From positions 186,001 through 250,000 of the forward strand of contig QPGO01000057.1 in NCBI GenBank assembly GCA_008632985.1: 64,000 nucleotides of DNA, given 5' to 3'. The position numbers and the translations under genes are program-made. Below are positions 10,301 to 60,306 of the stretch, piece by piece; within the stretch, counting starts at the first letter, position 1, and every line of letters begins with the position of its first letter. The notes under the pieces are model-generated. The model was not told where the DNA came from and searched no databases. It saw only the letters and a program-made list of their open reading frames with translations. The DNA is from Psammoneis japonica. Its lineage: Eukaryota.

Positions 10301-13300
10301 TCCCCACTTTGCCCATCACGTCAATTGCAAACAAAAATGAGTCATGCTGAAATCTCATGTCTGACAATGAGAGCACTCACTTGCCCCATTGATTTGCTTT
10401 TGCATTGGTGGCGCTGCTCTCAATCTAATTTGTGCATGCCACAATTTTTTTTCTGCACTGAATCTTTTTTTGTCCCCTGTTTCCTGCTCTTTCCTCTTTG
10501 CTTTGTGGGCCCTTCTGCCAGGAGTGCTCCCATCATGATCACACCAATTGTGAAAGACCCTTTGGTTGCAATCAACAAGCTCTTGTCAAGAACACAGAGT
10601 GCTTGTCAAGCACAGAGATCAACCCAAAACAAGAGCAACAGTGTTTTGCGAACTGCCAGCATCGGGACAATCCAACAGATGTCCAGGACAGATGACAATT
10701 GTGTGCCAGATGAGAAAGAAAGTGAGCAAAGGAGAGATCATCAGATCTCTCCATGCTGTCCACACCAGTCTGTCTGACACAAGGGAGTGCACTCCCCCCA
10801 TCTCGGATGTCTGCCACCCTCCCCTGATGAGCAAGCAATGCAGTGCTCATCAAGAAAGCAAGAGACAATCCAAAGAACAAAAATGAGGACCAGAGCAGCA
10901 GAAAAAAAGTGAGGACAAAAAAAAAATTGCCCAAGACTTGATCCACAAACACAACAACAATCAACAGCAGTGTCCTGTCAAGCGGCGGGCATGGCGGGAA
11001 TGAAGCATCCAACCCACAGCCTTGGTCAGTGCATCAGCAGGGTTGACGACACCCGGAATGTGTTGAGTGACAATTTTTCCTGCATTGCGTCAGTCTTGGA
11101 TTGCAAAATGTTGAACGTCAATGTGACGGGATTGCTCCATGGGCACCTTGCTGTTGATCATCTGAGTGGCAGAGGAGCCATCAATGTGCGGGGGAGTGGG
11201 GTCGTGCTGGGGGAAACCCAGCTCCTGGAGCACCATCCTGAGATGCAAAGTCTGCTTTGCACCAGCACCTGCTGCAAGAAATTCAGCTTCCATGGAGCTG
11301 GCAGCCGCAATCATCTGCACTCAACATCGGCAATCAATTGCAGCACCAGCAAGGACATGTGCATGTCCGGTGGCAGACTGCCAATGCCAAAGTTCATTGG
11401 CATGTGCTGCATCAATGAAGCCAAGAAGTTGGAAAAGATTGTCAGCATGAGGAAAATCTGGAAGGGATGGATCATCCTCTGGCCAATCAAAGGAACAAGG
11501 AGGAAGACATGGGTCACACTTGGACTTCTTGTGCATCAACCCCCAATGCTTGGTGCAGCACAAATGCTTGGCCATGCACTTGAGAGATGCACAATGGATC
11601 TCAGCTGGAGCTTTGGAGAACTTCAACAAAGCAACAATGGGATGACCAACACCCAAGCAACAACACAAGCAGGCAAAAACCAGCTCACCCAAGACAGACC
11701 AACAAGAGAAGCCCTGAGATTTGGAGAGGGCATCGTGCTCCAGAGCACCTTCTGCAGGACCTTTGGTGGCGTGCAAATCAGTGGTTCAATCAGCCGGCAC
11801 AGGAGCAGCCTTGAAGTTGGTGTCAGACTCATCTGCAGCAGGAGTGGTGTCCCACCCATGAGTCTTGAAGACATGATCAAGGCAACTTGCAATGTTGGTC
11901 GTGACTGAGTCATCATTCTGAACAACATCAATTCCATTGAATTCAGTGACCAAACCCAAATGCTTGAACGGGGGGCATCTTCATTCTCCATCTGGAGCGC
12001 CTTTCCAACATGGTCACAATCTCTTTTGAAAGCTTCTCCGACAGACAAGCAAGTGCAAAATCATCAACCTGATGGAGCAAGAGAACCTTTTGACACCATC
12101 ACATTCACCTGAATGGGCACACTTGTCATGTGTGGCATTGCAGAAGAGAAGCTTTGCACCCATTGGAATCAAGTTGATGTGCTTTTCCCAAAGTGCACCA
12201 GCTTCAGGGTGACCTTGGAGGGCATGTTTGAGCAGAAGAACACAGTGGCGGGGGGCACTTTCTTGCCAAAATGTTTTTCATGCCATGCAGCACATGCATC
12301 ATCAACAGCAACAAAAACAGGTTGTGAAGGACCAGGAGAACAAGCACAAGCATCCCAAGCATCGCCGCTGCAGATGTGATGTGACATGGCAGCATTGAGA
12401 GCAAAAAACATCTTCTCAATCGAGTGTTCCACAAAAGAAGAGCACGTGGAAGTCAGTTTGTGCAATGCTGGCACAGCCATCTTGGATCCATCACCACATT
12501 GTTGAGAATGATGCTGTCCATCTGGTCTCACCATGCAACCCCAATGTGGGTGCACAACATTTGCTCCAGGAGGTCATGGTTGAGGAGGATCACACACACC
12601 AAGTGCATGGAATTGATCCAATTGACGCTTCTCTCCTTCTTCCCATTCTGGCCATGTGTCAAGCTTGTGCAGCTTGGCACGGGCAAGATGATCAAGGGAA
12701 GCTTCTTCCGGAGTGACAGCACGGGAACTGATTGCGTGAAGATGGGCACACAAAAAGCATCTGTTGGAACAGCCTCATCAGAGAAGCCATCTTCTGGGCA
12801 GAGAACAGCCGCAATGGATTGCACGTCCTCCAAGGCAAGTTCAGGTGCATGGGAATCATCCTCCATCAAGGCAGGATCAAACAGCTCCCTTCCTCAAATG
12901 CTTTTTTAAGAGTTTGGGAGTCCAAACGTCTTTCCAGTGCAAAAGTGATCTCAAAAGTTGGAGTCCATTTGTGGAAGTCAAGACCCACGATGGAGTGCAG
13001 CTTCAGCATCTTTTGGTGTAAAGACTTTGTGCTTGTTGACAGAGACAACATGTGCACCCATGATCTTGTTGCAAGCAGCACAAAGCGATGAGAACAGGGA
13101 GGCCACAGGACTGCACTGCCTGATTTCAGATGCACAGACATGATCCATTGATGCACACTGGGAGAAACCAAAGCCACAGGTGGGATCCATGGGAGGGTGT
13201 TTCATGACACAAGCAACAGTCTTGGCAAAAGGATTCAATGAAGAAGTGAACATGGGAACAGTTGTTTCCTGTGTTTCAGCTGGAAAAGGCTGACCATTTT

Positions 13301-16300
13301 CCACTCATTGCAAATGAGTGGCATTCAGAGAAAGCTGAACAATGACAAGTCATTCATGCCTTCATCATGCTGTGCATGCTTGGCCATCTTGACTTTGTCA
13401 GTCTCAGGATCCCACCAAAGAACATGTTCTTCAAGGTGTTTGGCAGATGACCAAGGAGTGCACCTTTCTTCAAGTTTGTCCTGAACGTGGCTGGATGAGC
13501 AGAAGATTGTCAAGGGTGATGGGAGATGCATCTTGATCTTTGGCAGGAGCAGCATTCTTGGTGTGGAGGCAATGGCAAAAAGCACAGGGCCAGAATTGGA
13601 TTGAGAGGTTGGCACCAATTAAAAAATTGTGTGAGTCACGTTCTCAACAGTTGAATGTGAGTGTTCAACAGGACCACATTGGTTGGATGCACCAGCATCA
13701 GAAACACATGTGTCACACTGGAATTCTCATTCAAAGAGGCCACAAACTTTGGGGTTCTTGTGCAATTCCCCACCTTGATCCACAAACACACATTTGTCAT
13801 GACAGTTTGGTGAGTGTCAATCCAAGAATCGGCAAAGCCACTTGAGAGGACTGGCTTTAGAGACCCGTGCAACACCATGGAGCATGTGCATTTTATGACC
13901 ATGCACAGTGATCTCCAACATGTTTCATCATTGAAACCCAGACAGTCAGACTTGCGCGGTCATCATTCTTGGAAGCCTGACCAGCAAAAAAAAAATCCAC
14001 AGCAAGGCCTTGGCATTGCTGAGTCGCCTTGTGGGTTGCATCAGGTCCATCAGGCGTCTTGACTTGTTTTGCCTGAACACACATTGGACAAACATCAAGG
14101 ACTGGGTTGGCATGTTGGAACTTGGGGACCCCTTTGACACACTTGCAAGCATTGTGCAAGCAATGGTTGCTGGGATGTCCAAGGCAGTGGTGCCACAGTG
14201 AACGTTCAGTCTCAACTTTGAGAGAACGGACCAGAGGAGAAGCAGGCAATGGTGATGAGACTTCATCAAGAGAATGACATTGCATCAAAAACAACTCAGC
14301 ATCCATCACAAGGGTGTCTGTTGGAGCTTGTTGGACATTGACACAGAATGCAGCACGTTGGCGTGCATCTTGAAGATCATCACCCCAGGTTGGATCGGAC
14401 GTTGGAGGTGCTGGACAGGCAGCAGTCTTGGAGGGGGGGACCAAAGGTTGAGCAAAAACCTTTCCATGACAAAGGACACCATGAACTGCTGCCTCTTGGG
14501 TGTCAGTTGAAGCAGCACATTCATCGTGGGACCCCACAAATGCGGAGGGACCCGCAACCCGGAAATGTGCAGAGTTCTACGTGAATGTGTGGGGACTGTT
14601 CACGCAGGTTTTGCACCAGAGCCATCTCGCGAACTGGGCGTTTTTTCGGATTTTTGTCGTAGAAACTGTGCCAGTTTTGCGCATGTAGGCTACATGTTTC
14701 AGTGCCACATACAAAAATTCGCGTAGAGCTCTACAGGAGGGTCCCTCCGCATTTGTGGGGTCTCACGATGAACATGTGCAAGCACTGTCAGCACAGGTCT
14801 TCTCAAGGAGCTTGGAGCAAATGGCATGTGGTTTAAAGCCAGAAGCCCACACAAAATCGCATTCATCAATCAAAGTGGAATGCAGGCTTGGGTGGCAAAA
14901 GGTGCGCGCAAGGAGAAAACCATCTGCATTCTCTGCGGGTGCTTGCATGCAACCACAGCCATGAGGAACCACATCAGAACCTTCAGCAGCAGGGAGCATC
15001 TTCAAAGGACAGGGATTGTCCGGTCCAAATGGAGTGCAAGCATGAAGAAGGTTCTCATCTCCTGCATGGGATGCCCAAGCACCAGCATCAATCTGTGCAT
15101 GGCATGTCATTGAATCTTGGAGCACATGATTGATGGGGACAATGGGGGCATTCAATGATTCAAAGGTTGCAGGTGAATCCAGAGGAGAAAAAATCGGGGA
15201 GATGTGCGCAGCACTCAATGGCGACAAGTGTTGATGGGCAGTCATGTCAAGGCACTCAAATTCTTGGTCTTGAGCAGTGGACAAAGGGGTGTCCACATCT
15301 TGTGCAGGGGATTCATGAAGAATGGGTTCCCTCCCCTGATTGATGCTGTCAGGGTCATCACCCGGAATTGTCTTGACATCCGGAGTGCTGGCCTTTGTCC
15401 AATCCGAAAGAAGATTTGCAAATGACACACGTGAAAGAGGCAATTCAGTGGAAGGCAACAAGTCAGGTAGACCCTCTTTCACAGTCACCCCACTTGCAGG
15501 AGTTGGTGTCAGATTGGAGGGAGACAGGTGGCATTGTGCACCCAAACACAACAACGGCCCTGGGAAAAATCCTTCTTGGTCTTCTCAGCCTTGAGCACAT
15601 CTTGAGCATGCCAACAATGGCCCCAGGAAAAATCCTTCTTGGCTGTGTCAGACTTGAGTGCATCACAAGCACGCTGATCATGTTGAAGAAACTGGGAGAA
15701 CCGAATGAGGTGAGCATGCAAGCACTCAGCATTGTTTGGTGTGGGACACTCATGGAACAAGTGGCCATCACCACAGACAACACAGGGGCGAGTCTGTGCA
15801 CTGTGCAGCAGCAGGTGATGCCTTGATCCTGCAGACACAAGCCTTGCAAATGTCACACAGTGCTTGCACTTCATCATCTGGTGGAATGTCCACAGGCAAG
15901 CTCATTCACAAAGCACTCCACAGCATCTGGAAGCACTTCTGCAGGAGGGGGATTGGTTTCCTTTGGGGGGTTCTTCAACAACAGGGGGTGGATCAGATGA
16001 TTTGTCTGCAGGCAGCAGCAAGTTTAGACCTCAAACAGGAGCTGCAAGAGAAGGATTTGCTGGGGGATGAGGAGTCCTGATTGTGGAGACAATGTGGAGG
16101 ACACTTGGGAGGATCCTTGGTGCAAAGAGCAGGACTGTCCAGTTCCTTGAGGACAGTGCCAATGGTCTCAACAATCTTCTTCTGCGCAAACTTGTGTTGC
16201 TTGTTCTTGTCTTCTCGAGCATCTGCTGTTTTGCAGTGCAGATGCTCTCCAAGTTGGGTGTTGCTGAGAAAAACATCCAGCTCACCAGGGTCATCAAGGG

Positions 16301-18250
16301 AAGCATCAACATTGGAGATGATCGCCCGCAGCTGAAGGAAGTCCCTGAAAAGAGCATTGTAACTGAGAATCATGAGATTGTTCTGGTGCAGGCAGCTCTT
16401 GATCAATTCATGTGGATGCTTCATCCAAATTGGAAGGATGTCAAATGGGGTCATCTTGAGGGTGGCACATCAATCTCCATGGCACTGGCAAACAATGTCA
16501 GGGCACTTGGAGTCAGCTGGAAAAATCCCAACTTTCTGGATGTGCTGGAAAACAGTCAACTTCATCCAGTCAAGTGGCACTTGCATGCGAAGTGGCAGAT
16601 CATCTGCAGGATCATTGCCACTTGTGAAACCCCAATTTCCACCATCCTTGACAAAACACCAGAGAGGATCCATGTGTGTGTGCCACAAGCCGAGGCTTGT
16701 TGGGTTGCGGCAGCATGCCATGCATGGATTCCTTGGGGAAGATGTCATCACACAAGTGAGAGGATCATGCAGAAAAGACTTGTCATCCCAATTGGTGCAA
16801 TGGACAAAGAGAGAACCATCAGTGAGGATGAGACATTCTGCACTGTCTTTGCAACAAACATTTCCAGACTTGCAGGGTGTTGGTGATTTCCCTGACACCA
16901 CCTTGCCCACTTCCTTGCATTGACAGCAAGCCAGCGCATCCTTTGGAAGTCCTTTTGGATCAAAGGTGTGCACAGCACTGGTTGCAGTTGAGGCAGAAGC
17001 TGCAGCAGTTGCAGTTGTGGTGGAAGGTGCAGAAGATGGTGCAGGAGGAGCAGTCTTCTTCGATGCATTGGCCACAGCTTGCTCAAACTGTTTTGGACCA
17101 GGTGGGTGAGTGGCCAAGGCCTCGGCAAAGTCTTCAGGAGTCACACCTGCAGCGGCAGCCAGTGGAGGTGCAGGACTTGGAGCAGACAGCAATTTTGGAT
17201 GTGGAGTGTCAGAGATGTTGTCCCAACAATCACAACACTGAAAACCAGGACAGAAATGGAAACGCAGAGTCTCAACACATGCTGTCATGGTGCCCTCGTT
17301 CTCTGAGATTGCTTTGATCACAGTCTTCTGAAGATCGCTGAGGTTCAGACAAACTGGAGAACCTCAAGGGGTGGCCACAAAGAGAGGAGCCTTGTCAATG
17401 ATCGGTCTGATTTGTGCAAGATCTTCATGTTGATGCTTTGATGCACACGCCATTTTTGTTGACCATGGCAGAAGCTGGCATGCTTTGGCTTTCAGGAGCC
17501 TGGTGTTTTGTGCATGACATGGATCTCTTCTCTTGCTGGTTGCCTGCACTGCTTCTGCACATTTGGACTCTGCACACACTTCACTTGTTTGGCAGAACTC
17601 AGCATCTGAGCTTCTTTGGTGTGCTGAGATGTGTTGATGATGCAGGGGGCATGAATTGAAGTGCCGGCATTTTTGAACTTTTTGGCTTTTGTTGTGAGCA
17701 GTGCACAATGTTCTGCAAAAAATGACAGGCAGCTCTCCTTCCAGTGTGATGGAAAAATGAAGCAGTTCATTGATTTGGTGCTCCCATTGCCCCACAAACA
17801 ATGCTGAAAAACCAGAGCTCACAGTGCAACAATGGAGCGACCCCAGCACAAACAACAAGCACTTGGTGCACAGCACATGCAATGGCAGGTGGCAACACAG
17901 GGGAAAAATGGCAACCGCACATGTCCCAAACACAACAATGCATTTTTGACAAGTGAGCACACGTGCTTGTGCAGCAAATCTCAGCGGCATGTCGCATCTC
18001 AACCTCTGAAGGTGTGTGCTGATGTGCAGAAAAAGTGAGAGAGACACACAAGGAGGGGGGCCAACACGAGTGTTCACCACAGTTTGCAGGCAACAAAGTG
18101 GCACTCACACACTGTGTCAAACAGCAAACACATGTTGATGGGTTTGTGTGTGGGGGTGTGTGACTTTGGCAAGTGAATGTTCGTCCAATGCGAGTGTGAA
18201 GTGCTCCGATGATTCTGTTGTGCGTGATGTGTCTCGGCCAACGGACGGAC
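10300..18250 (-). mobile_element. Degenerate Ty1/copia (CoDi-like) LTR retrotransposon, gag-PR-IN-RT-RH; ends approximate
   Basis: Minus-strand domains in copia order: gag-like (16-17.3 kb), protease QIDAGA (~15.09 kb), pre-integrase LWHHCLGHP...CPMCVQAKQ (~14.1 kb), RT ALQGHPEAGALWEKHIN and LLLHQVDDFALAC (~12.05-12.2 kb), RNase H SSMEAEFLAA...SRHIDVQHFAIQD (~11.1-11.3 kb). A polypurine tract AGGGGAGGG followed by TG lies at ~10.82 kb. Many frameshifts and TGA stops; a matching LTR pair was not found. Confidence 0.93.
14521..14771. mobile_element. MITE (251 bp) with 33-bp TIRs and ACAT target-site duplication, inserted in copia pol
   Basis: TCATCGTGGGACCCCACAAATGCGGAGGGACCC (14521-14553) is the reverse complement, with 1 mismatch, of 14739-14771. 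ACAT flanks both sides (14517-14520, 14772-14775). Removing the element rejoins the copia frame (...DSACTC|AASTDTQ...). Confidence 0.9.
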
Positions 18251-18294
18251 GTGGACTTGTATTTTCTTCTTCTCATTTCTCATTCCCTCCAACC

Positions 18295-37487: not shown

Positions 37488-40400
37488 TTGGCTTGGCGCT
37501 TGTTGGATGATGATTCTTTCTCCGAGTCTATGGATAGTCCCGGTTATTCTAGTCAGCCAGACGTACGCAACCCGACGACCGTCCATCGTACGCTGATTTG
37601 TAAATTGACATCGACACCAAAAAAACACACCGCACCATGGTGCATGAAATTCGGAGGCCCACCAATCGATGACTGTAACGATTTCAAAAGCGACACCGCA
37701 CAGTCTATCAATCACCACACTAACTGCATTTTATCTGTCCAATGTGAGTGGTCGTGTGAGGATAAAACGTCTGTCTTGTTCTTCATGATCATCACGATTG
37801 TCACCCAATCCCCCAAGCGTCCTCGACATGATGTGCTCGCAGTGATGGAACCAGAGGGTTTAGAGTGCTCCAAATGCAACATGCAGACATCAAATGCACT
37901 GGGAACATGTTTTATGGAGCAATTGGTTGTTTGAGAAAACACACGCTTTGTGTTGGATGCTTCGCGAGAGCATGTGTGCAGCGGTCTCTGGGAAAACACA
38001 ACAAACAACTGACATGCCCAAAGAGTGACACCCTTTGCGCCAAGTGTCAGAGCCATTCTTTTTAACACACTCCATGAGATGGAAAAAATAGAATGCAGAG
38101 AAGAGCCTCTGATCATAAAATGGAGCAACCTGGCCCAGAAGAAGGAGACTTTGTTCGACAGGTGTTTGCACCTCGACTTGGCAAATGTGTTCGATTTGAA
38201 TCGACAGTCATGGAGAGCCCAACAGTGCAGGTGTGGCTGTGTGGCTTGCAATTCAAAGTGGGCTGAGGAGATGAAAGCCATGAACCAAGTGCAGCTTGAC
38301 ATGTTGGAGGGATGGCTGTCTGCTGTGCAGTCGCAACTCAACAAGGAGGAGGCAATTGTCCATGCTGCCTTTTCAGCCTTTTGCAAGAGCACCGCTGCAA
38401 ATGCAGGGACCTGTGTGAGAAGTTCTCCACATGGTTCTCTGGAGCTGGGGCCATTGCACAAGCCATGCCCAAACTGTCCAGGCATGTTTGCTCATCACTG
38501 AGATGACACAATCGACTGGCCCTGTCACAAGCACTGACAAGTGTCATGGGATTTCCTGACATTCTTCTTTGCAATTTGCCAATGCATTGTTTGATGCCAA
38601 TGTCACCTCATGTGAAGGGGATTACATTCAAGTTCATGACTGTGCCCAAAAGGCAGATCACACCAACATTGAAGGAGACAACTGCTTTCATTGCAACAAA
38701 CCTCCCGCCACTGCTGGATTGGTGCATTTGGCCAAAGGTCACCATTGCAAGGCTCTGCCCTCAAGCTGGCCTCTGTTTCTGGTCCACTGGACAGCTTCAA
38801 CACTGTGCTGAGCATGAAAGATGTTGCGCTGCATGGTGCTCTTTTGGCAATTGCTGCAAACTGAAAAGAAGCCAGCTTTGCTTCATGTTGGTGCCACTGT
38901 CAGTGACTGGCACAGTGCTTGCAGATGGAAACTCAATGGGGCGGTTTGCTGCTGGACTGGAGTCAAGTTGGCTCCCTTGGTTTGTGATGGGCACAAGTTG
39001 TGCATGGACCAGCTTCATTCAGGAGCTGAAACCACAGCTCCTGCTTGACCTGCAACACTTGGACTTCCATGTTAACATGATCTTGCTTGATGAGATCTGG
39101 GGCTGGTGCTTGGTCAAGCACCTTTCTCCCTGCCGGCATGCGCAACTTTTGATGTCATGTGTCTCAAGTTTGGCTTGTCAGCCAACAAGTTGCAGATGTT
39201 CTGCAGGTCACCAAGTGTCAACGCTGGAGGAGAACATGTTGAGCGATGCTCATGCCATGATTTTCTGCAAGCAATTTCCTGTTGTGGAAATGTGCACATG
39301 CCTGGACCAACGGCTGGTCTCTCACTTCTTGCACATGTCACTTCTGAGTGAACCCAGGAATGGTGTGTTCAGAGCACAATTTGGTGCTTTGAGGGAGGAG
39401 ACAAGAAACAAAGTGATCAGGGGTCAAAATGGGGCACTTGTCTGGCTCCTGAAATGAGAGACATTGCTGAAGGAGTTTTGATGTGGATGACAGCAGTGAT
39501 GATGACAATGAGCTCATGGTTGACTTTGATGCCATGAATCCAGAAGATTTGTGCCAAATCACCATGGGGAGGGGGGGGGCAAATCTGCAGTGGTGGGTGC
39601 CATTGTTCCCAACAGAGTGGAGCTTGTGCATTGACAAAGAATCTCTGGAACAGGCGCTTTGTGTGCACTGTCATCTCCATGTCCATTTCACCATTGGCGC
39701 ATTGGGCGGCAAATGATGCCACCACACATTCAGGCCAAGGACCGCCACAATCACACCAGATGTTGCCAGCATCACAAAGCACCTGCACATCTGCATCATC
39801 AAACAACTTGAAAGAAAAGATTTCATGATTCAATTGAACATGATTGGCGCTGTTGCTTTTTGGAATAACCCATCTGTGAACGGCTGGTGCATCACTTTTT
39901 GTTCAATGAAGTGCAGCAAAACATGAGAGCCTGACACACACCACACTTTTGCCCAAATCCAGCAACCAACCCACCAGCCATTTGTCAGTGAATTGGAAGC
40001 TTCTTTCAATTTGCATTCACCACAGAGTGGAGAGCAACTAATGAAAGTGGCAAAATGAATGTGCCATGAGCAATGGCCACTGACTCCAACAGACCTCACT
40101 TCCCTCAAACAGCAGACATTCTCCAAAGCGATTTTTGGAAGAGATTTTGAAGGTGTTTGTGCCCAATCAGATTGATGGTGGAGATCAAGCAATGATCAAG
40201 ACAGGCCAGATTGAGCTCTTCCAAATTTTCACAATGTGCCTTGAAGGCTTCTCTCAAATCTGGACCTCCAGGTGTTTTGGCAAAGATGAGCAGTGTTTGT
40301 TGCGATCCCGTCAAAGCCATTTTGGCTCAAAGCAGATCTTTTTGCAAGTTGTCTTCTTGTGCAGCTCCCTTTCCCAATGCTCTAAATTCTTAACCTTCAA

Positions 40401-40930
40401 TCTCTCAAAATCATGGTGATGTTTGTCGAGCATGACAAAATCCTTGGCTTTCTCATCAACAATTCCGGGGCACTTGGAGCAAACCGCGGCTGATCTTGGG
40501 GTTGCCGCAGAAGCCCCCACCAACTTTGTGACACATTGCGGCAAACCTTTGCTGTTGACTCCCTTTGTGTCATTAAAATCAAGCTTCAGCAGCTTCAAAG
40601 TTCCATCAAGCAACTGACAGACAATTCAACGTGAAAATCGTTCAACACTTTGGGGGCACAATTCATGACAACATCGGTCGGTTGCTGTGTGATGAAAAAA
40701 TCCTTGTCATTTAAAGAAGACAGAGACAAGGTGTCACTTGTCAAACAGTTGCAGTTGTTGAGTTGTGGGCCTCCAAATTTCACATGCCGTGGTGCGGTGT
40801 GTTTCTTTAGTGTCGGGTGCAGAGGTGTCAACTTGCAAATCAGCTTGCAACGGACGGTCCCCGGCTTGCATTTTCTTGGGAGTGCACAGATGAAATTAAG
40901 AAAGCCAGAGTGGAAGATACCTAAGCACAT
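37488..40930. pseudogene. Convergent (inverted) pair of degenerate paralogous genes or repeats, hypermutated
   Basis: Plus-strand TVHRTLICKLTSTPKKHTAPWCMKFGGPPIDDCNDFKSDT (~37.58-37.7 kb) matches minus-strand TVRCKLICKLTPLHPTLKKHTAPRHVKFGGPQLNNCNCLTSDT (~40.73-40.86 kb). The interior is TpA-depleted. Confidence 0.65.
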
Positions 40931-48694: not shown

Positions 48695-49050
48695 TTGGAG
48701 ACAACACGCCATCAAGCATGATGAGTTGTGGAACACCAAACAAGAGCTAGCTCTCTATTATCCGCAAGAAGGGCGAGCCATCCTGGGCGATCGCGGCAAT
48801 CGTTGCTTGGCGAACAACAACACATCGTGCGAGACAACGAGTTGTGAGTGAAAGAGCGCGAAAGGAAAAGCTTTCGAGAGATTTTGTGTGTCGTGACCGT
48901 TGCTAATTTTCTCAATCACTATCATTTTTGTGTATCTTTGTATAATCGATACCATCACTTCGTATGTAGAACATTCGTGAGATCTTGGTACTTTCAAAAT
49001 TATTACCAATTCCTACGTAAACTTTACGTAACGGTCCAAAACGCAAAAAA
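48695..49050 (+). repeat. Non-hypermutated copy of a dispersed repeat (partner at 52325-52670)
   Basis: Alignable by eye over ~350 bp (acaacac.ccatcaagc...gagattttgtg...ctcaatcact.tcattttt...ctttcaaaatt). Confidence 0.9.
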
Positions 49051-52000
49051 ACTGCCGACTTTGACGTCCTTGCTTTGTACTGTAGCCCTATTGAGCACCG
49101 GCATGGCATGTCGAGGGCAGGTCGTCAAACAGTGTGGGATACCGTACATAACGACAACGCTGACGTGGAAGGTCATCCTCTAAGTAATTGCGCCTTATGT
49201 ACGGTACAAATTTTATACCGAACATAAGGCGGAGGATGTAACAAGGTTATACCGTACATAAAGGCGAATTTTTACTTACTTAATGGGGTACTTTTTTGAG
49301 TCATCACACATTGCCCTTTGTCATTTTAATCAAGTTAGTCAAACACAGCTTTTTAAACCGCCGCATCGCAGTGCGCACGGAGAAGACGGATCTTGTGGCA
49401 CAAATGTCGCCAGTCTAACGCAAGCAACTAGGCCAGTGAACATAGAAAATGTGATGGCATCCCAAGCAGAAAGAATTGCTGTTGTCAGCTGTTGCTTGCT
49501 TCCTGTCTCTCTGTTGTTGTCTCTTCTTTTGCAAGTGTTCTGAGTTGACAATGCACGGGGCCGGCTCTCTGAGCTCTGGCAGCTCCTGGGAGCTGGCCAG
49601 CACTGCTGCTGCTCTTGGCTGGCACCTCACAAGCAGTGGCTGTGCACAATGATGTGCACTCTTGAGCCACCACCTGGTGCCAAGACTGCGCCAAGTTGGC
49701 TTGCTTCTCTCTGTGTGGCTTCTTGACTTTGCCCCCATGCCATCCTCATCAAAGCAAGCCTTTGTTTTCTCACCCTGCTTTTGCCGCTGCTTGTCTTGTG
49801 CTGGCACACACTGGAGATCATTTCCGGGCACCTCAGATGCTGCGTGCTTTTGAGCTTCTGCTCTTTTCATCTTTTTTTTTTTGTTGTTGTTGCTCTGGCT
49901 GCTTGCTGCTCCAACACACAGCAGAGCTGCTTTTTGCTGCTGACACTGCTGCTCTTGCCCGTGACCTTGTTGGTGCCACAGCAAAGCACTGTGCTGGAAG
50001 CTCTGCACCAAACACCAAAGCTGCAAAGACAATTGCCCAGCTCTGCAAAGAGGTCATGGAGCACATGCTTGTGCTCTCATTTGACAGAAGCAGCGCACAG
50101 CAGCAGAGAGACATCTTCAGCAAGCTCCGGTGCTTTCGCACATGCTCGGAGATTCACTGACAAGCACTGGAGCAGTTTTTTGCAAGGCACAGCTCTCAAC
50201 GACAACTGGGTCACAACCGAAAGTGGTGTTGAAAACACTTTTCAGGGAGCTGCTGCTTGGTCATGGACAACACACAGAGATTCTTGGCTGGCCTGCTGGG
50301 GCAGCAATGTGAGCTTTTGCTGGGTTGTGCTGCAAAGCATCTCACAACTGCTTGCTTTCAGCTCCCAAAACAGAGTCTCACAATTTCCCCTTTTGGCATT
50401 CTCTTCACCCCTTCCACCCAGTTCTTCAAGGCACAGCACATGCCGCTGTCCTCTGTGCAGGCTCTTGTCCCCTTTGGCGGCTTCTCTCTTCTTGCTTCCT
50501 CCTTGTGTTGCTCTGCCTCCTCTTGTGGCCTCCTCCACTGGTGCTGGTGTGGCTGGACACTTTGTTTCTGCACACGCTCCTTGTCTGCATGTTGCATTTT
50601 GCTTCACACGTTGTCCCTTGTCCTTGAGTGCAGCTGCCTTTGATGATGGTTGCTTGTGCAGTTGTTGTCAGTTCTCCCCACTTTAACACACGGGTCACTT
50701 TTGTGACATGACGACTCTTGCTTCGCTCGAGTCGAGTCAATCAAAACCTGCTGCCCACACCAGGTGAAAAAATGCCATGTCGAGGCCCGAGCTCCAGACA
50801 GAATTCTCCAGAAAATGCACGGCACTCAGCACCAACTCTGAACTGAGAACTGATCAGCGCCTCATTCACCCAAAGGTGCGCCTGTGACCTGCCTGCATCC
50901 TGCATCCTGGCACCTGGCACTGACAAAGTTCAAAGTGAACACAGTGAATCAAAGAAGACAAAGAACGGACTGCCCCATCTGAAGAGAACAAGGAATCGCG
51001 ATTCTCTGCAGCAAGAGTCAGCCGAGAATGGAGATTGAAGAAGATGCATTTTGTTTTGTCGAGTCGCCGTCGTCAGAGCATCCGGAGCTGACACATGTGC
51101 AATCGCAGTCGGCTCGCATGTGAACGCATGGGACTCCACTCCGATGTCACGTTCTTTTTGCTCCCGGGGTGGAAGACAATGTGCGAACCTCGTGCGGATT
51201 GTGAATCTTGACATTTTTGGTCTGTTCAAGTGCTTGCTGGTTTGTTCACGCACATGGCGACAGTCTCGTTGCCCTGGAGAATGGCCAACTTTTGGCACGT
51301 TTGGTTGCGGTTCACGGAAGAACACTGCAGGCCTTGATCTCTGTGCTCTTCCCACCAAAGACATTTGGAACGCAAGTGTCTTCGAACTGAATTTTTGACT
51401 TGTTCCAGCTCTGGGTGGGACCTCATGCTGCTGAACTGTGACACAATTGTTTTTCATCATCCGTCCCATGTTTTGCACATGCATTTCTGCATGTTCCATT
51501 GTAAAAAATTGTTCCACACTGCCTGTTTTGCGAAGCCAAAGGCTTTCTGTCATCTGCATTCATGTCAATGAAAATGCGCTGGGTGTGTTCTTTAATGTCT
51601 GAAGAACACACCCGGGCATGCTGCAAAGAATGCACTTCAAGTGTGGAGGAGGAGACACGTTCGCAAAATTGCCTCTTTTTCTGTTGGCTGTCATTCACAC
51701 ATCCATTGCTTGACAATTTTGCTGCGGAGCTCGCACGTAGAATTCTGCGGGCCCAATGTCACAAAAAGTCCCACCTGGGACTGGAACCCATCTTTTGTTT
51801 GTTTGGATTGATTGGTGCATTGGCATGCAAATTGTTTCGTCTCTTGTCTCATGGCCCTTGTCCCTTTCTCCTTTGAAACATGTGGCCCATCTGCTGCCGG
51901 CACAGCTGTGAGCTTCAGGCGGAACATGGATTAGAGGTCACCACATTTTTTGCAATGAGTTTCACATTTGCATTTCTTGCCTTCATGTGGATGTCATTGG

Positions 52001-52199
52001 AGACCTTCAAATTACGATGGGCGAATCCAGGGTTCTTTGCGGATGGAGAGTCTCCCGCCGACATGGTCAAGAAGCACTGGAACAGTCATTGTGGCCGCAT
52101 GTGTGGCGGTGGCAGAGCTGAAGATGAAAACAGTGACGCTGAAATGGAAACCACTGAAAGCAAAATTCAATGCCACCACGAAGACCCAACAAAGAAATC

Positions 52200-52465
52200 T
52201 TGTGGAGCACCAAACAAGAGCGAGTGCTCAATCCAGAGGAAGGGCGAGCCATCCTTGGCAATTGCGGCATTCAAGCTTGGCGAACAACAACACAACGTGC
52301 GAGACGACGAGTTGAAAAAGAGAGACAACACACCATCAAGCAAAATGAGTTGTGGAATGCCAAACAAGAGCAAGCTCTCAATCCAGAGGAGGGCAAGCCA
52401 TCCTTGGAGATTGCGGCTTCCAGCTTGGCAAACAACAACACATCGTGTGAGATGACGAGTTGTGA
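52200..52465 (+). repeat. 150-bp tandem duplication
   Basis: tgtgga...caaacaagagc...ctcaatccagagga...gccatccttgg...gcttggc.aacaacaacac occurs at 52201 and again at 52351. Confidence 0.88.
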
Positions 52466-53149
52466 CCGAAAATCGAGTGCGAAAGAAAAACGCTTTCCGA
52501 GAGATTTTGTGTTGTGACCGTTGCTAAATTTCTCAATCACTGTCATTTTTGTGTGGCTTGGCAGAATTAATGCCATGTGTTCATGTGCAGAACATTCGTG
52601 GAAGTTGGTGCTTTCAAAATTGTCGCCAATTCCTGCGCACACTTTGCGGCAACCGCAGACGCATGCAAAAGAAAAACACTGCCAAGAGGCAGGTGTGACG
52701 CCTCTCAGGGAGGCGCCGTGCATGATGTGTGTTCACAAACTGGCCAGCCAATGAATCTCCCCCATGGGCAGCCCATCGGGCTCTCACAGCAAAGAGGCTC
52801 TTGGTGCCAGACAAAAATCAGCAGGCATCAAAGGAGGCATTTGTGTGATGCATGTGCTCTGGGAACAGGGAGCAGCACAAGTTCAAAGATGACTGCACTT
52901 TTCTGTTTTCCCATCAATGCACCCAGTGGATTCAATGATGAGCTGAGCAGCAGGAGGGCCTTGATGTTGCTCACGACATGAGACATGCTTGGCCATTTTT
53001 TGCTGCTTTCAATTGTTGCAGTCATTGGGCCATTCCAGTTGTCCGCAGCCACTTTGGCGAGGTGGCCTTCTTGCTCAGTCAGCAACGGGGAAAGGTGTTG
53101 ATGCCCAAAAGTTGATCCACTGGGGCTGGCAGCATGATGCTGCAGCAGC

Positions 53150-53720
53150 CACATGGCTGGGGCTTCTTCTGCAACCAGCTCAAGACATGAGTGCTCATTT
53201 CCCCAAAATGCCCAGTCACCTCCTTCTTGGTGCGCTGATGACTCAGCAGCAGCGGGAAAATTTCAAGCAAGCAGCTCAGAAGTTCTTTCTTGCTCTGCAC
53301 AACATCAGACCCAAGCACAGTTGTCATCCTGTTGACAACTCCCAGAACATTCCAGTTGTTCCAGAGTGCAGTCTGGGGCAGAAAGCCAGGTTTGGTGGTT
53401 GATGTTGGTGCTCCAGAAGTGGGGCGCAAAATCACATCTCAACCCAAGACACCAGAACAGGTTCTGGTGGATCATGAACAAAAAAGATGCAAGCATCTCA
53501 AGCCTTGTCTTCACCAATGATGTCATTTCACACCATTTGTCACATCATGTAGTTGGCTGCTTGGCAAGGAAGCCAAGGCAATGCTCTGCATGATTGCTGC
53601 AAAGCTTGTGGACAACTGGCAAAAGCCTCGCTCAGAAGTTTGTGGCTCAATGACTTGCGCAAGAACAAGCATTGCTGTGCAGCTGGATTTGGTCATCAAT
53701 GCCCCAGGGGGGGCATGCAC
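53150..53720 (+). mobile_element. Remnant of non-LTR retrotransposon C-terminal restriction-like endonuclease region (CRE-like)
   Basis: KTPEQVLVDHEQKRCKHLKPCLHQ*CHFTPFVTSC..LLGKEAKAMLCMIAAKLVDNWQKPRSEVCG...ARTSIAV resembles the diatom RLE-type consensus from memory (E..K..KYL..C...RRHFTPFV.S.DGLLG.EA...W.KPYS.V.G...AR.SIA). Confidence 0.6.
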
Positions 53721-55949
53721 CCCGTCTTCACAAATTGGCTCCAGACATCCTCAGTGGGAAAGATGGCACTGGTTTGTTCTCCTTTGCAGCAGCGCCAAGA
53801 AACACCGAGAGCAATCTTGAGTGTGCCACATGCCAAGACAATGTGCTGACCCCCCATTTCACAAGATGCTGCTAAAACCACTCTTCAAGATGACCATCTT
53901 GCTGACCAAAAATGGCATGGCCAACAATGCTGCACTGGATGCCACTGAGTGATGCGTCCAAGAAATGTTGTTCATGCAAACTGGCACATGATGCTGGAAC
54001 TCCCTTCTGTTGCAAGCATGCCCTGTGGGATTGTCAGAAAGGATGTTTGACTGCAGATCACACTTGAAGCATTGCCCGCATGCAGGCCAGTCATGCTGGG
54101 TTTTGAAGCAGCAGCGCCAGACACACAGAAGAAAAAGAGCAACATCTGAAGGCTTGGAATCAAAAATCAGTTTTTGTTTCTTGCCCACAGTGTGACAGCA
54201 AGACAAACTTCATGACGCTCACCTGGTTGCCACATTGCTGCTCAAGATGCTGCTGAGCTTCATGTGCTGACATCAAGCTTCTGTGCACAAGCACCTTGCC
54301 AATGTGCATGTTCATGACTGCTGCAAGCACCCCGCAGCAGACTGGAGGCATCTTTTGCAGCATTGGGGGCAAAGAGAGCTGGAAAGAAGGCAACTGTGTG
54401 CATTTGATTGAGAACATTGTGGGTTCTGGTGCAGGGCATGAGCAGAAAAAGGCAGGAGCAGGGGTGGGTGATGGCCTCAGTGCTGTGCCAGGAGGGGCTC
54501 TGGGACAAGGTGTTGAGGATGCAGCAGACAAAGCAGGGGCAGTTGATGTGGGGGCAAACAGCAGCAGTGTCACTGGGTTGGAGATGGCATCATCAATGCT
54601 CTGCAGTTGAAGAAAGAAAGTTGTTTGATGCACCTTGAACTTTGTGATCAGCTGTTTCATGATGTCCCAAACATTTGAGCATGATGTTGATTCTTTGTTG
54701 GAGCTGGGCAAGATCTGGCAAGGTTGTCAAAGAGGAGTTGAGAAGGGTGCAGGGCATGTCTTTGACAGAGAGCAACACAAGGGGGAGCTGACAGATTGCC
54801 AGGGATGTTGGAAAAGGGGTTGCCAACAGCAAAAGCAGAGTGCTTTTTCAGGGCTCAGGGAATGGGCAGTGGCATCAGCAGTGGCCAGCAGCATCTGTTG
54901 TTTCTGGCACCACAGATGAACAAGGAATGTCCCCCATTGGTGGCAGTGATGTTGTGCAAGGAATTGGAGGGGGGGTCCTCATTGGAGGCAAGAAGCCTCA
55001 GACTTCAAAGCATCAGTGCAAAAAGCACTCAGTGTGCACATGTGCACAGTGTTGGTGGCTTCTTTGTCATTCTTGAAGTTGCAGCCACCACCTCCAAATT
55101 AACTCTGGCTGGGCCAACTCCAGTTCTTGCACAAGACACTTTCTCTTCCATCGCAGGTGCAACAATGGCAGCAGCACATCATTGTCTGATGGCCACAATG
55201 AAGACCTTGCTGAAGGTGCAAAAGCGCACACATGCCAGCTGATGGAAAGCTGCACATGCGCCAAACAGAAAATTTTTGGTGTGTTTGTGCTTTGCCCCCC
55301 CCCCCCCCCCTCCTCAGCAGACTGCAGCAACATGCTCAAAGGACTCTTTGTGCACCAACATTGTTGCTGAGAGAATCTGACATTTTGTCATCTGTCACGC
55401 ACCAAGGTGCACATTGCAAGAGCAGCAATTGAGGCAGCAGCACATCAGTGCTCACACAACACACAAGCCTGCATGGCGTGCCAGCTGATGAAAAAATGAC
55501 AAATGCCAAACACATGAAACATGTGGTGCACTTGTGCTTTGCCTTCTGCTGGCGAGCTGCAGCAATGTGCTGACTGGACTCCTCATGTGTGCTGTGTTCA
55601 CACCTGCATTGCAGATGAGAGAATCTGACGTTCAAGGTGGCAGCAGCATTTCAGTGCTCTGATGCATTTGATGCCATGGCAGCAGTGGATTCAGGGGCAC
55701 CTGTTTCAGAATTTTGATGAGGACATGGCTGCCAACTTTGATGAATTTGTGCAATTTTTGACCAACATCCTTAGAGCCAGTGTCCTTTGCTGCCAGGGCA
55801 GTCTTGTGACATTGCTGCTGCCAGAATCACCTGTGCTGCAAGCTTGTCATTGCCCAGTGCTGTCGGGGACTGGTCAGATGACATTGAGGAACTTGGGGAA
55901 ATTGAGGCTGTTTGCCTGCTCTCCTGCTGACACATTGGATGACACTCAA

Positions 55950-58900
55950 GAAGTGGAGCTCAAGCACCCATGGGGGGAGGCACTGTCTGGTCCATTGAGT
56001 GGTGGGTGCAAAATCCACAGCACATGGTCCAAACAGAGATGGCAGTCAGCCTCCACACAACATCTCTGCATGCTTGGCAGAGCAAACTCAATGCTGCTGG
56101 CAACAATGGCAAACAAAGAAGCAGAGTGCAGTGGGCCCAACACCTTCTTGCCTTGATGCTGTCAAACCTCCCACCAGCAACAATGAAAGAGAAGCTTGCT
56201 GCTGATCATCAAGGTGGCTGTTGCCTCTCAGCTCTCAACCCTTGGCCTGTTCAGTGCAGGGTGCGGGCTGTTTTGTGTGTGCCACAAACAAAATCTGCCC
56301 AACCATGTTTGGTGTGGCAGAGAGTGGCAACATTTGGGAACAAGGCCACAACACAGGAAATGAAAAGCACAAAGGCACAGCATGAGAATGCATGGCAGCA
56401 CAGCATCTTGCTTTGGAAGCTGGAGGCAAGTTTGCATGAGCTTTCAATTAAAAACAAACTGTGAAAGCTGCCAAGGTTTGAGCAGATGGTCTGTGCAAAA
56501 AATGCCAATGCACCCAATGGTGTGCTGCAGCAATGTGCCCTGGACACTCTGTCTGTTGCTGCCATCACAATTTTGTTGGCATTTGAAAGAACAGCAGCCA
56601 CACCGCTGAGAAATGCCAGAGACACAGGGGAGCATGAGGAGCTGTGCTGTTGACATGCTGAGTTGTTGCAAAAAGCAGCAACAAAGGGCTCCACCAAAGG
56701 CAATGTGTTGGACATTGGGCATGGCATTTTGTCACGAATGGCATGTTGACTCAACTCCAGCACCCACTTCTCAATCTGTGCCGCGTCATTTTTCCAACTC
56801 TTGGCGCTGCTTGCATTTTGCAAGCCAGGGTGAAATCATCATCCCCTCCCTTCAATTTTGCTGCTGCTGCCAAGAGAGATGCCAAAGCTGCTCTGCTGCA
56901 ACTCAGGCTTCTTTTGCATTTGTGCCACAAGAAGTTGTTCTTGTCATCTGGCAGGGGATCTTCCCAAGCTTCTGAGGCCCTCTGATCTCTGCTCTTGGCA
57001 AAAGAGCAGTGCCCCATTTGCAGGCCTCTTTTTGCAAGAGCTCAAAAGAAGCTGTGCACCACACCAAAAACTTTCTCTCTCATGCATGGAGCCAGCATCC
57101 TGCTCATTGACAAAAATGGCCCTCTCCAAAAACAGACACAGTGGCAAAATGCTGGCACACAAGTGGGCTGTCTTGTTCTTCTTGTGCTGAGCCACTGTTG
57201 TTCCTGTCAAGATGCACCTCTCCTCTTGACCATGATGCAATCTGTTGATTCTGAGTTGGCCCACTTCATTTTGGTTGTGACTTTGGCCATGACTTTGTAA
57301 AGATGATGGTTTTGAGTTGAAGCACTCATGGGAGGCAAGGCATTGACTGGTTCATTGAGTGGGTAGAAAAACCACAGAGCACAGTCCAAACAGGGGCAGC
57401 AGTCGTCCACACAACATCTCTGCACATGCTTGGCAAAACAAATTTGATGCTGGCAATGATGGTGAACAACGTGGTGGCTGCAGTGCACCATCTAACACCT
57501 TGCCTTGTTGCTGTCAAACCTCCCACCAGTGGTGACAAAAGAGGCTTGCTTTGCTGATCATGGTGGCTCTTGCTGCTCAGCTCTTTTGACCCTTCACCTG
57601 CTCAGTGTGGGATTGGGGGGGGGGGGGGTTGTGTGTGCTGCAAACAAGAAAGTCTGCAACACACAGGAAGAGAAAAGCAAGGGCAGCATTGGAGTGCATG
57701 GCAGCATCATCTTGCTTTGGAAACTGGAGGTCACCAGCACACAACAGTTTTCAGTTAAAAACAAACTGTGAAAGCTGCAGCTGCCAAGGTCTCAGCAGAT
57801 GGTCTTTGCCAAAAATGCCAGCACCACATCAAATGGTCATGTTTGCAGCAATGTTCGCTGGCTGACTGCTGACTGGACACACTCCATCTGTCTGTTGCTG
57901 CCTTCATTTTTTGTTGGCATTTGAAAAAATGACAGCAGCCACACTGCTGAGAGCTGTTGGAGAGACACACGGGAGCATGAGGCATGCTGTTCTTGACATG
58001 ATGCTGAGTCATTGCAAAAAGCAACAAAGAGCTCCAAAGAAGGCAATGTTTTGGACATTGTTGGACATTGGGCATGGCATTTTGTCACGAATGGAGTGTT
58101 GACTCAACTCCAGCATTTGCTTCTCAAGCTGTGCCGTGCCATTGTTCTGACTCTTCTTGATGCTTGCATTTTGCAAGCCAGGGTGAAATCATCATCATCT
58201 TCTTTCAACTGCACTGCTGCTGGAAAGAGAGATGCAAAAACCATTCTTCCACAACTCAGGCTTTTTTTGCAATTGCCCCAAGAAGTCATTGTCATCTGGC
58301 AGAGGATGATCTTCTTGAGCTTCTAAAACCCTCTGATCTGCTCTTGGCCAAAGAGCAGTGCCCCAGTTGCAGCCTTTTTTTTGCAAGAGCTCAAAAGAAG
58401 CTGTGCACCACACCAAAAGCCCTCTCCCTCATGCATGTGGAGCCAACAGCCAGCAGCAGCATCACTGTCAAAAACGACCCTTCCCAATGACAGACAGTGG
58501 CAAAATGCTGGCATGCAAGTGGGCTGTCTTGCCCCTCTTTTGCCAAAGAGCTGGTGTTGTTCTCTCATCAAGATGCACCTCTCTTGACCGTGATGCACTC
58601 TGTTGATTCTAAGTTGATTTGAATCATTTTGTTTGCAACTTTGCAAAGATGATGATTTTGAGCTCAAGTGCTCATGCTGGGAGGCAAGGCACCAACTGTT
58701 CCATGATTGAGAGGGTGGAAAAAACACAANNNNNNNNNNNNNNNNNNNNNNNNNNNNNNNNNNNNNNNNNNNNNNNNNNNNNNNNNNNNNNNNNNNNNNN
58801 NNNNNNNNNNNNNNNNNNNNNNNNNNNNNNNNNNNNNNNNNNNNNNNNNNNNNNNNNNNNNNNNNNNNNNNNNNNNNNNNNNNNNNNNNNNNNNNNNNNN

Positions 58901-59950
58901 NNNNNNNNNNNNNNNNNNNNNNNNNNNNNNNNNNNNNNNNNNNNNNNNNNNNNNNNNNNNNNNNNNNNNNNNNNNNNNNNNNNNNNNNNNNNNNNNNNNN
59001 NNNNNNNNNNNNGCACAGGCAGAGTGTGGCAACACTTGGGCAAGGCTGTGACACAGAAAGAGAAAAGTGCAGCTGGCGTGAGGAGAATGTGCAGCAGCAC
59101 AGCATGTTGCTTTGATTGAAAGCTGCTGGAAGTCAGTGTGCAGCGGCTGCTTGAACAAGAGCTGTGAAAAGCCACCTGCCAAGGCTGTTTGAGAAGACGG
59201 CTGTTGCAAAAAATGCTGGCATGCCCAATGCTGCGCAGCAATGTGTGCTGGACACTCCATCTTTTGCTGTCATCATTTTCTTGGCATTTGCAAGAGCAAG
59301 GGGCCCACACCACCATTGACAGCCGTTAGACACCCACAGGAGAGCATGGGGTCATTGGCTCGTCAAGCTCTTCTTGTTGCAAAAGCATTTTGAAGCCCCT
59401 CAAGAAGGCAACATTTGGAGCTTGGAGCGGCACGGCTTTGTCATGAATTTGAGCTTTGGCTGAGTTTCAGCATGCACTTCTTGAGTTGTGCCATGCAATT
59501 TTCCAGCTTGTGCTTCTTGCAAAGTGCGACACTGAGAAAAGCTGTGCTTGGCCACAATGTCCCACCAGCAGGCTTCTTCTCTTGGATCTTTCACAAAAAG
59601 TGTCCAAGACACTCCAACTCATCCTTTGCTCTTGACAGAAAAGCTGCCCCCTTGTGCAACTTTTCTTTTTGCAAGAGCTCAAAAGAAGTGACACAGCACA
59701 CATGCCAGAGCTCTCCAACTCCATTGCACGTGTGTGGTGTGAGCCCGCAGCACAGCCCCTCATTTTGGCAAAAACAGCCTCTCAACCACAGGCAGTGGCA
59801 AAAACCACCAGGCAGCGCACAAGTGGAGCAAGTGCCTTGTTTTTTGCGGTTGCCAAAACCACTCTTTTCACATCAAGAAAAATGCATCTCTCTCTTGACC
59901 AACAAAGTTTCGATGCGGTTTTGATTCCGAGTGGATCCGCGTCATTTTGG
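55950..59950. repeat. Three diverged tandem copies of a ~1.3-1.35 kb unit
   Basis: Shared anchors: cacaacatctctgca (56057, 57409), aaacaaactgtgaaagctgc (~56452, ~57759; related ~59162), gcaagagctcaaaagaag (57033, 58383, 59671). Confidence 0.85.
58730..59012. other. Assembly gap (N run)
   Basis: Run of n characters. Confidence 1.
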
Positions 59951-60306
59951 TCGTGACTTCTTCTCGAAGATGACGGGTGAACTTCCGAATGCCTTTAGGA
60001 AGTTGAAGGTCAGATAAAAAGCACGGTGTGTCAGTGCTTTTGCTGACGTGTCAGAAAGCCCTATCACCTAATTCTTGATGACGTGTCTCGACACTCGATC
60101 AACGTCAGAACGGTTGACAAGATCGATTCTGAGCATTTTGTGGATGACTGGCTGGCGGAAAGCGAGTTCGTATCCGCATTGTCACGTCAAGCGCATTTTG
60201 GAGTCGTGGTGTATTGTTGTTCACTTCTTGCCAATCCTGCTTTCGGTGTGATTGTCAAGAAGCACACAACTCTCAACTACAACTACTCGTTCTTTACACA
60301 ATAATC

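Follow-up and report, generated by a model that had tools for sequence, protein, structure and literature searches.

Three tracts of diatom DNA in which TA dinucleotides appear to have been rewritten in place as TG or CA

What removes nearly every TA dinucleotide from one copy of a repeat and leaves its sister copy in an ordinary state? The question is raised by two repeat copies at 48.7 kilobases (kb) and 52.3 kb of a 64,000-nucleotide stretch of Psammoneis japonica DNA (contig QPGO01000057.1, positions 186,001 to 250,000; "the window" hereafter, i.e., the whole stretch that was analysed). An earlier note on this DNA had proposed that, between the two copies, TAY became TGY and, as the same event on the other strand, RTA became RCA (Y, pyrimidine; R, purine), that these are substitutions acquired in place with a 5'-TAY preference, and that they depend on chromosomal location rather than on duplication. 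Here, we report that the mutated copy sits in one of three tracts from which TA is almost gone, and that these tracts are probably old transposon-derived sequence changed in place, to saturation, by a TA-directed process. The repeat copies are the following.

48698..49045, + strand: outer, unmutated repeat copy with 16 alignable TA, about 400 bases left of the boundary of block 3
52322..52667, + strand: inner, mutated repeat copy with TG or CA at 12 of the 16 outer TA sites
52172..52325, + strand: partial third repeat copy, in tandem and within block 3 (self-BLAST match 52200-52314)

Self-BLAST aligns 48698-49028 with 52322-52648 at 80% identity over 336 columns (E 1e-75); apart from the partial third copy, this is the only match in the window between sequence outside and sequence inside a tract. 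The differences listed before are all present, i.e., cacTAtc/cacTGtc, gtgTAt/gtgTGg, aTAcc/aTGcc, ttCGTAtgTAgaac/ttCATGtgCAgaac, ggTActt/ggTGctt, aatTAt/aatTGt, ccTAcgTAa/ccTGcgCAc and ttTAcg/ttTGcg, as is the gcTAa retained in both copies (48904/52525). The 322 aligned bases contain 54 mismatches (34 transitions and 20 transversions), and purine/pyrimidine coding lifts the identity of the pair from 80% to 90%; the same recoding of the window uncovered neither long terminal repeats (LTRs) nor additional outside/inside pairs. Opposite the 16 outer TA sites, the inner copy reads TG at eight, CA at four, and CG, TA, AA and GA at one each. The reverse case is absent: no inner TA stands opposite an outer TG or CA, and of the two aligned TA in the inner copy, one faces TA and the other CG. 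Counted per strand, 14/34 adenines in TA context are changed versus 7/156 A/T outside TA (p=1.3e-7), and the comparison of TAY with TAR, which had been suggested as a check together with the non-TA contexts, gives 13/21 against 1/13 (Fisher p=0.003). That many CpGs survive in the same stretch is also correct; 9 of 19 aligned CG are kept, seven are now TG or CA and one is now TA, and the third copy retains CG at one site where the other two read CA and TG. The observation on the pair is confirmed and lies far beyond chance. The direction of change cannot be read from the pair on its own, and the polarity assigned to it, TA to TG/CA in the inner copy, is borne out by other data, namely the dinucleotide balance of the tracts, their tandem copies, the tyrosine codons of a Copia remnant and the majority state of a metagenome family.

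The tracts, together with the repeats that mark their edges, are located as follows.

7376..18259: block 1, TA-erased and CG-poor tract
38117..40382: block 2, TA-erased tract with a partly depleted flank to about 40.9 kb
49444..59995: block 3, TA-erased tract of 10.5 kb that holds the inner copy
55956..60017, + strand: tandem array of units of about 1.35 kb, inside block 3
37557..37701, + strand: left arm of an inverted repeat around block 2, unmutated
40726..40879, - strand: right-hand counterpart of that arm, partly mutated

Blocks 1-3 together contain 47 TA in 23.4 kb, with TA-free runs of up to 2481 bases. The observed/expected ratio of TA is 0.00-0.06 in 1-kb segments lying wholly within a block (0.14 in one segment of block 1) and 0.17-0.55 in segments straddling block edges, against 0.43-0.83 in ordinary segments; the corresponding ratio of CG is 0.06-0.64 within the blocks and 0.78-1.26 in ordinary segments, and the mean of TG and CA within the blocks reaches 1.6-2.0. 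The left edge of block 3 is sharp, with TA at 49416, 49429 and 49443 and then none until 50684, and its right edge coincides with where the 1.35-kb tandem array stops. Per 1000 dinucleotides, with strands pooled, the blocks differ from the rest of the window by -40.0 TA, -40.4 CG, +39.7 TG and +39.7 CA, and the base composition of the two is the same. Since the loss of TA and CG equals the gain of TG and CA at unchanged composition, the blocks look like ordinary DNA of this genome with TA and CG rewritten as TG/CA. TA is absent throughout block 3, whereas its CG ratio is 0.35-0.64 at 50-53 kb and 0.06-0.19 at 53-59 kb; the left and right parts of this block thus appear to differ in age or in methylation.

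Copies within the tracts record when the changes were made. Between the tandem copies 55956-57376 and 57314-58728, no dinucleotide difference is commoner than TG versus CA, which makes up 22 of the 68 adjacent double differences; in a second tandem pair of block 3 it makes up 6 of 20. Such differences are expected if an ancestral TA or CG was resolved independently in each copy, and they show that the changes came after duplication, i.e., in place, as the earlier note had held. The inverted repeat around block 2 adds a similar comparison: from left to right arm, TA became CA three times and TG once, and CG became TG four times, the mutated arm being always the right one.

Block 1 is the only one in which a transposon origin is recognisable, block 3 holding repeat arrays and block 2 being flanked by inverted repeats. 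Two features of block 1 are needed here.

10970..15389, - strand: degenerate Ty1/copia-type polyprotein (gag, integrase, reverse transcriptase/RNase H)
14515..14779: insert of about 265 bases resembling a miniature inverted-repeat transposable element (MITE), with terminal inverted repeats of about 40 bases, which interrupts the Copia remnant

A Pfam scan covered 132 block open reading frames (ORFs), with 16 long ORFs of the window in a separate scan; the sole match among the block ORFs was to gag_pre-integrs in block 1 (E 2.3e-6, 27.7 bits versus a cut-off of 28.4). A word-indexed protein search with the mutated integrase ORF did not find longer relatives, and a full phmmer search returned 240 relatives. 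By tblastn, residues 1-1277 of one relative (P0122, 1280 residues) map in order onto 14996 to 10970 at 27-46% identity, and the order of gag, integrase and reverse transcriptase/RNase H matches that of a Ty1/copia LTR retrotransposon. Compared with this relative, the remnant runs through three frames with 20 in-frame stops and has not a single Tyr in 1234 aligned residues. No direct repeat was found around the remnant, by bases or by purine/pyrimidine coding, i.e., flanking LTRs are missing; the element is old or truncated.

The relatives of the remnant supply the direction. We took as conserved those columns with at least 70% agreement among at least four Copia relatives (484 columns), 323 of which are unchanged in block 1. 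The 20 conserved Tyr columns now read Cys in 11 cases (TGY), His in seven (CAY), and Phe and Trp once each, and Tyr in none. At the 38 conserved Arg columns, Arg is left in ten, and His stands in eight, Gln in six, Cys in four, Trp in two and a stop in one; 21 of the 38 are now CAN or TGN. Control residues are largely retained (His 22/25, Trp 12/15, Gly 40/44, Pro 37/44). Since Tyr went to Cys or His and Arg was lost at conserved columns, the ancestral codons were, as judged from the aligned relatives, TAY and CGN. At Tyr codons, both sense-strand A->G (TGY 11) and T->C (CAY 7) occurred within this one remnant, and changes on both strands of single elements speak against pre-integration editing, which would affect a single RNA or cDNA strand. 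Over the blocks, the TG share in 500-base segments is 0.49 with a dispersion no greater than outside, and no strand-coordinated runs of TG versus CA were found in them beyond background.

The MITE-like insert (DNA fold -82.8 kcal/mol, z -11.2) retains seven TA, several of them in the strongly targeted TAC/GTA contexts, plus many CG. It was thus inserted later than the hypermutation and later than most of the CpG decay, and has been left untouched since, so that the process is episodic or has ended at this place. Because the insert keeps its TA inside block 1, timing apparently matters besides location.

Long open frames occur on both strands of the blocks since TAA and TAG are gone; these are by-products and not genes. 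One of them, a 331-codon frame at 10913-11905 (+), runs antisense to the reverse transcriptase region of the Copia remnant.

A second data set comes from metagenomes, in which a scan with the integrase alignment gave 80 loci. In one of these, L014 (3711 bases), about 2.6 kb (tract 199-2797) are nearly TA-free at a CG observed/expected of 0.4-0.9; its element has further copies in 36 of the other loci, with identities of 67-88%. Where L014 has TG/CA, the majority base of the family gives TA. A family consensus of TG/CA, which the earlier note had named as the outcome that would speak against it, is therefore not what this family, a different one from the 48.7-kb repeat, carries. Relative to the family majority, A->G is found in the L014 tract at 30/66 adenines in TA context versus 18/398 other adenines (p=6e-17), and outside the tract at 3/46 and 3/230, respectively. 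The left edge of the tract lies at the junction of two repeat families; its right border (~2797) falls inside gag, which starts at about 2405. Along the 82 family TA sites in L014, conversion is nearly complete over the first 49, and 30 of the remaining 33 are still TA. Other copies (L056, L044, L057, L007 and L012) show heavy but patchy TA conversion, and for most copies of the family the figure is about 6-25%. CG loss is alike across the family copies, whereas TA loss is confined to some of them; CpG decay is thus common to the whole family and TA loss particular to certain copies, and the two are separate processes.

In a public protein library, 135 Copia relatives are 100 residues or longer; ten of these lack Tyr altogether and contain many Cys and His (P0158, P0180, P0201, P0210, P0211, P0216, P0221, P0233, P0245 and P0248), and all ten derive from short metagenome contigs. 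An alignment of five Tyr-free proteins (four of these ten plus the 95-residue P0205) with the window ORF has no conserved Tyr column in the region covered. The Tyr-free relatives are probably translations of TA-erased DNA, and if so, such tracts pollute protein databases.

The base following the adenine influences the outcome. In L014, the converted fractions are 8/12 for TAT, 13/23 for TAC, 8/23 for TAG and 1/8 for TAA, and with the repeat pair pooled, TAY differs from TAR at p=2e-4. In the blocks, the TA that are left, as a share of the frequency outside, amount to 0.3% for RTAY (1 site), 3% for YTAY (8 sites), 5% for RTAR (12 sites) and 15% for YTAR (26 sites); the best survivors are sites without a pyrimidine after A on either strand, and even there about 85% are lost. 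Tyr codons of the Copia remnant preceded by a pyrimidine became TGY in seven of eight cases, and after a purine the outcome was CAY six times and TGY four times. Conserved Ile, Thr and Met codons show first-position A->G at 12/17 after T versus 2/40 otherwise (p=6e-7). The following-base preference is graded, T > C > G > A, and is not absolute. The proposed 5'-TAY preference thus stands as a preference (13/21 versus 1/13 in the pair) and is no strict rule, TAR also being lost to about 85-95% in the blocks.

As to where the process acts, the tracts do not follow element borders, and it works copy by copy and not on every copy of a repeat. The proposal of location instead of duplication holds in so far as one repeat copy can escape, as in the pair and in the arms around block 2; it goes too far in that location alone is insufficient, as the MITE-like insert with its TA and CG indicates. 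Judged from these copies, neither duplication alone nor position alone brings mutation. The L014 tract, which ends inside an element, and the tandem copies that diverged as TG versus CA after duplication bear out the claim of substitutions acquired in place.

We consider that these data are best explained as follows. TA-directed transitions, strand-symmetric, limited to tracts and graded T > C > G > A, were made in place in transposon-derived DNA and wrecked its genes, and a separate decay of CpG went alongside. Each TA became TG if A->G occurred on the + strand, or CA if it occurred on the - strand, at a higher rate if a pyrimidine follows the A (T > C > G > A) and with tract edges that can be sharp to tens of bases. 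A second, slower and separable process turned CG into TG/CA, for which the deamination of methylated CpG is the likeliest cause. The outer copy, outside the tract, kept its TA and the inner copy, inside it, lost them. We judge it close to an even call that silent foreign DNA is the target of a DNA adenine deaminase, active in episodes, which turns A into inosine (read as G) and destroys transposon genes; in coding sequence, its effect would be Tyr to Cys/His and lost reading frames. Deamination of adenine to inosine would be the simplest chemistry and in line with the precedent in Bigelowiella natans discussed below. The choice of tracts through silent chromatin or small RNAs is guesswork at this point.

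Several points weigh against this explanation. CTAG is absent from the blocks (0 versus ~52 expected) despite being a YTAR site, whereas the other YTAR contexts (TTAA, CTAA and TTAG) survive best; a model built on the following base alone predicts about five CTAG and so does not fit. A->G on one strand equals T->C on the other, which makes the target base ambiguous, and a mutagenic modification of thymine in R-T-A may be the chemistry instead. Blocks 2 and 3 gave no recognisable transposon gene, by Pfam on their ORFs or by Atlas on their longest ORFs; the latter search returned nothing usable, with low recognition, and these longest ORFs probably exist just because TAA and TAG were lost. When the window was compared by BLASTN with the 80 metagenome loci, only its Copia coding region had relatives there, and no outgroup for the 48.7-kb repeat was found, so that the polarity of this repeat rests on the surrounding tract and the other data sets. 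The L014 contig, finally, may be a chimera of two copies.

Among the alternatives, the one that survives best, unlikely as we hold it to be, is a standing heritable modification of T or A at every TpA in silent chromatin (e.g., oxidised thymine or methylated adenine) that would mispair at a low rate, TA thereby turning slowly into TG/CA over many generations in the manner of methylated CpG and with no deaminase bursts. Like CpG, TpA is a self-complementary dinucleotide, the same tracts show both of them ending up as TG/CA, and the process is strand-symmetric, all of which would fit such a modification; the gradient-like, partly depleted flanks of block 2 and the intermediate conversion in many family copies would also suit a slow decay. 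We know of no TpA base modification of such kind in diatoms, and a literature search found no paper on TpA modification in them. An abrupt edge, as in L014, and an insert that keeps seven TA in strongly targeted contexts speak against a continuing process, and in B. natans the same signature came in bursts, in some lines only and with up to 45 changes in one line (bioRxiv 10.64898/2026.01.13.699255).

Editing of retrotransposon RNA or cDNA before integration, ADAR-like or APOBEC-like, would turn block edges into insertion edges. Block 1 does hold a retrotransposon, the right edge of block 3 lies at the end of a repeat array and the left edge of the L014 tract at a junction of repeat families, but editing of one strand would be one-sided, and both strands are equally affected in one element (TGY 11, CAY 7; TG share 0.49). 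The tandem copies diverged as TG versus CA after duplication, the arms of the inverted repeat around block 2 are not alike, the L014 tract stops within an element, and block 1, at 10.9 kb, is about twice the 4.4 kb of the Copia coding remnant; we regard this route as very improbable.

Slightly less probable again is an artefact of sequencing or assembly, in which modified bases of silent DNA are misread (C as T, A as G). Signal-based long-read base callers can indeed miscall methylated sites. The assembly of the window, however, contains a sized gap of 283 N, which suggests a scaffold of paired reads and not a signal-based long-read consensus. A palindromic site miscalled on both strands should also yield a mixture including TA and CG, copies within a tract differ by other changes and indels as well, and tracts of this kind also occur in independent metagenome contigs, which bear names in the style of short-read assemblers.

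A reversed polarity, as in fungal repeat-induced point mutation (RIP), with TG/CA ancestral and the outer copy having gained TA by C->T, has the symmetry of the pair on its side, and also the TA-richness of a 130-base stretch of the outer copy (15 TA). It has next to no probability left in view of the conserved Tyr and Arg codons of the Copia relatives, by which TA and CG are ancestral, the TA majority of the metagenome family, the ordinary composition at 48-49 kb (TA observed/expected 0.67, TG+CA 1.08) and a TA-free state that spans 10.5 kb, far past the repeat; for blocks 1 and 3 as wholes it is refuted. Just as improbable is a composition due to selection against UpA or to foreign origin, i.e., blocks that always avoided TA and CG, for which nothing speaks beyond the composition itself and which is at odds with a wrecked Copia remnant (20 in-frame stops in three frames, 0 Tyr) and with a TA and CG loss that equals the TG and CA gain at unchanged composition. 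Known selection against UpA is a mild depletion and not a loss of at least 20-fold on both strands, and we reject it. GC-biased gene conversion is rejected on account of the unchanged base composition.

The window is diatom nuclear DNA, because an eRF3-like ORF of 592 residues (28525-30303) has its best matches among diatom proteins; the top matches are 71-80% identical, and those with names are all diatoms (Seminavis, Ditylum, Pseudo-nitzschia, Nitzschia, Cyclotella and others). Two further observations were made on the side. The ORF at 23335-25326 (-) fuses a ChaN/Tiki-type haem-binding domain (E 2e-35) with a class I methyltransferase domain (E 5e-28). The region 61950-63065 is AT-rich (GC 0.41) and contains tandem repeats of about 400 bases, with TA observed/expected at 1.04 and CG at 0.48, i.e., its TA bias is opposite to that of the TA-erased blocks.

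Among known systems, one direct precedent was found by literature search, B. natans, and no report of TpA hypermutation in diatoms. According to that work (Mettrop et al., bioRxiv 10.64898/2026.01.13.699255), two integrated viral regions in mutation-accumulation lines, with giant-virus and virophage DNA, mutate about 1000x faster than the rest, the rate being ~6e-7 per site and generation; nearly every change there is A->G or T->C, TpA is the site in all cases, and not all lines are affected. Its authors propose a DNA adenine deaminase of ADAT2 type, and the candidates named are TadA/ADAT2-ADAT3 and ADAR (bioRxiv 10.64898/2026.01.13.699255). As in our case, TpA becomes TpG or CpA depending on the strand, confined in B. 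natans to regions of foreign origin; genome clusters with TpA depletion and CpA and TpG enrichment, which there are enriched in reverse transcriptase and DDE domains, are also described, and the end state is similar, with a set of coding sequences at a TpA frequency of 0.0018 versus 0.002 here. The window likewise has TpA transitions on both strands and clustered TpA depletion with CpA and TpG gain. The two cases differ in host, a rhizarian versus a diatom (stramenopile), in target, the tracts here being transposon islands with a Copia remnant and with no viral genes recognised, and in stage, since the process was caught live there and is saturated and apparently finished here. The main text of the preprint, as far as it is accessible, contains no following-base preference, no tract edges inside elements and no CpG decay, and does not mention diatoms.

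The enzymes named above share with the present process the conversion of A to inosine and a preference for U/T before the edited A, TadA and ADAT2-ADAT3 acting on tRNA and ADAR on dsRNA. They are RNA enzymes, with DNA activity in special cases only. The target loop of bacterial TadA, U-A-C-G, resembles TAY, whereas the tRNA targets of eukaryotic ADAT2/3 mostly have a purine after A34, unlike the pyrimidine preference found here. The T > C > G > A series may serve as a yardstick for candidate enzymes.

Decay of methylated CpG is the system that matches the other half of the signal. CG goes to TG/CA in the same tracts (7/19 in the pair, 21/38 of the Arg columns), but such decay explains the CG half only; TA has been lost more completely than CG, and sometimes where CG is little reduced. 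Methylation of diatom transposons is established, and diatom DNMT4 enzymes are reported to be related to the fungal RIP factor RID, with a function that is not known (PMC9998398). Another paper on diatom retrotransposons (PMC2806351) makes no mention of hypermutation, dinucleotides, RIP, TpA or deamination.

The consequences for annotation are practical ones. Tracts without TAA and TAG stops or Tyr codons give rise to long false ORFs and Tyr-free "proteins" in predictions and databases, and transposon annotation based on similarity fails on them.

Hypermutation as a genome defence is well established for cytosine deamination only, i.e., RIP in fungi and APOBEC in animals. RIP is C->T mostly at CpA, it creates TpA, and it mutates both copies of a duplication. 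In the present tracts, as in RIP, transitions at one favoured dinucleotide hit both strands of transposon copies until their genes are destroyed, and edges relate to repeat edges. The tracts differ from RIP in that TpA is removed, so that chemistry and direction (the latter taken from outgroups) are opposite, and in that the outer copy and the left arm of block 2 escape while their partners are mutated. The diatom case, in transposon islands and saturated, is a new instance of a process reported once before and not a categorically new one; what it adds to the precedent is the sequence context, the tract structure and the independence from CpG decay. Its end state suggests that the process is widespread across a major group of marine primary producers, and partly converted environmental copies point likewise. 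It is possible, although we lean to doubt it, that diatoms have a dedicated, episodically switched-on adenine-deaminating defence that edits double-stranded DNA at 5'-TA, with TAT and TAC as the fastest sites, that hits both strands and works through silenced transposons one tract at a time, and that is shared with B. natans and old across the SAR group (stramenopiles, alveolates and Rhizaria). If this is true, the following-base preference would be the fingerprint of the enzyme, the partly converted environmental copies would mean that the process is active in nature today, and TpA defence would be the mirror image of fungal RIP, built on A->G.

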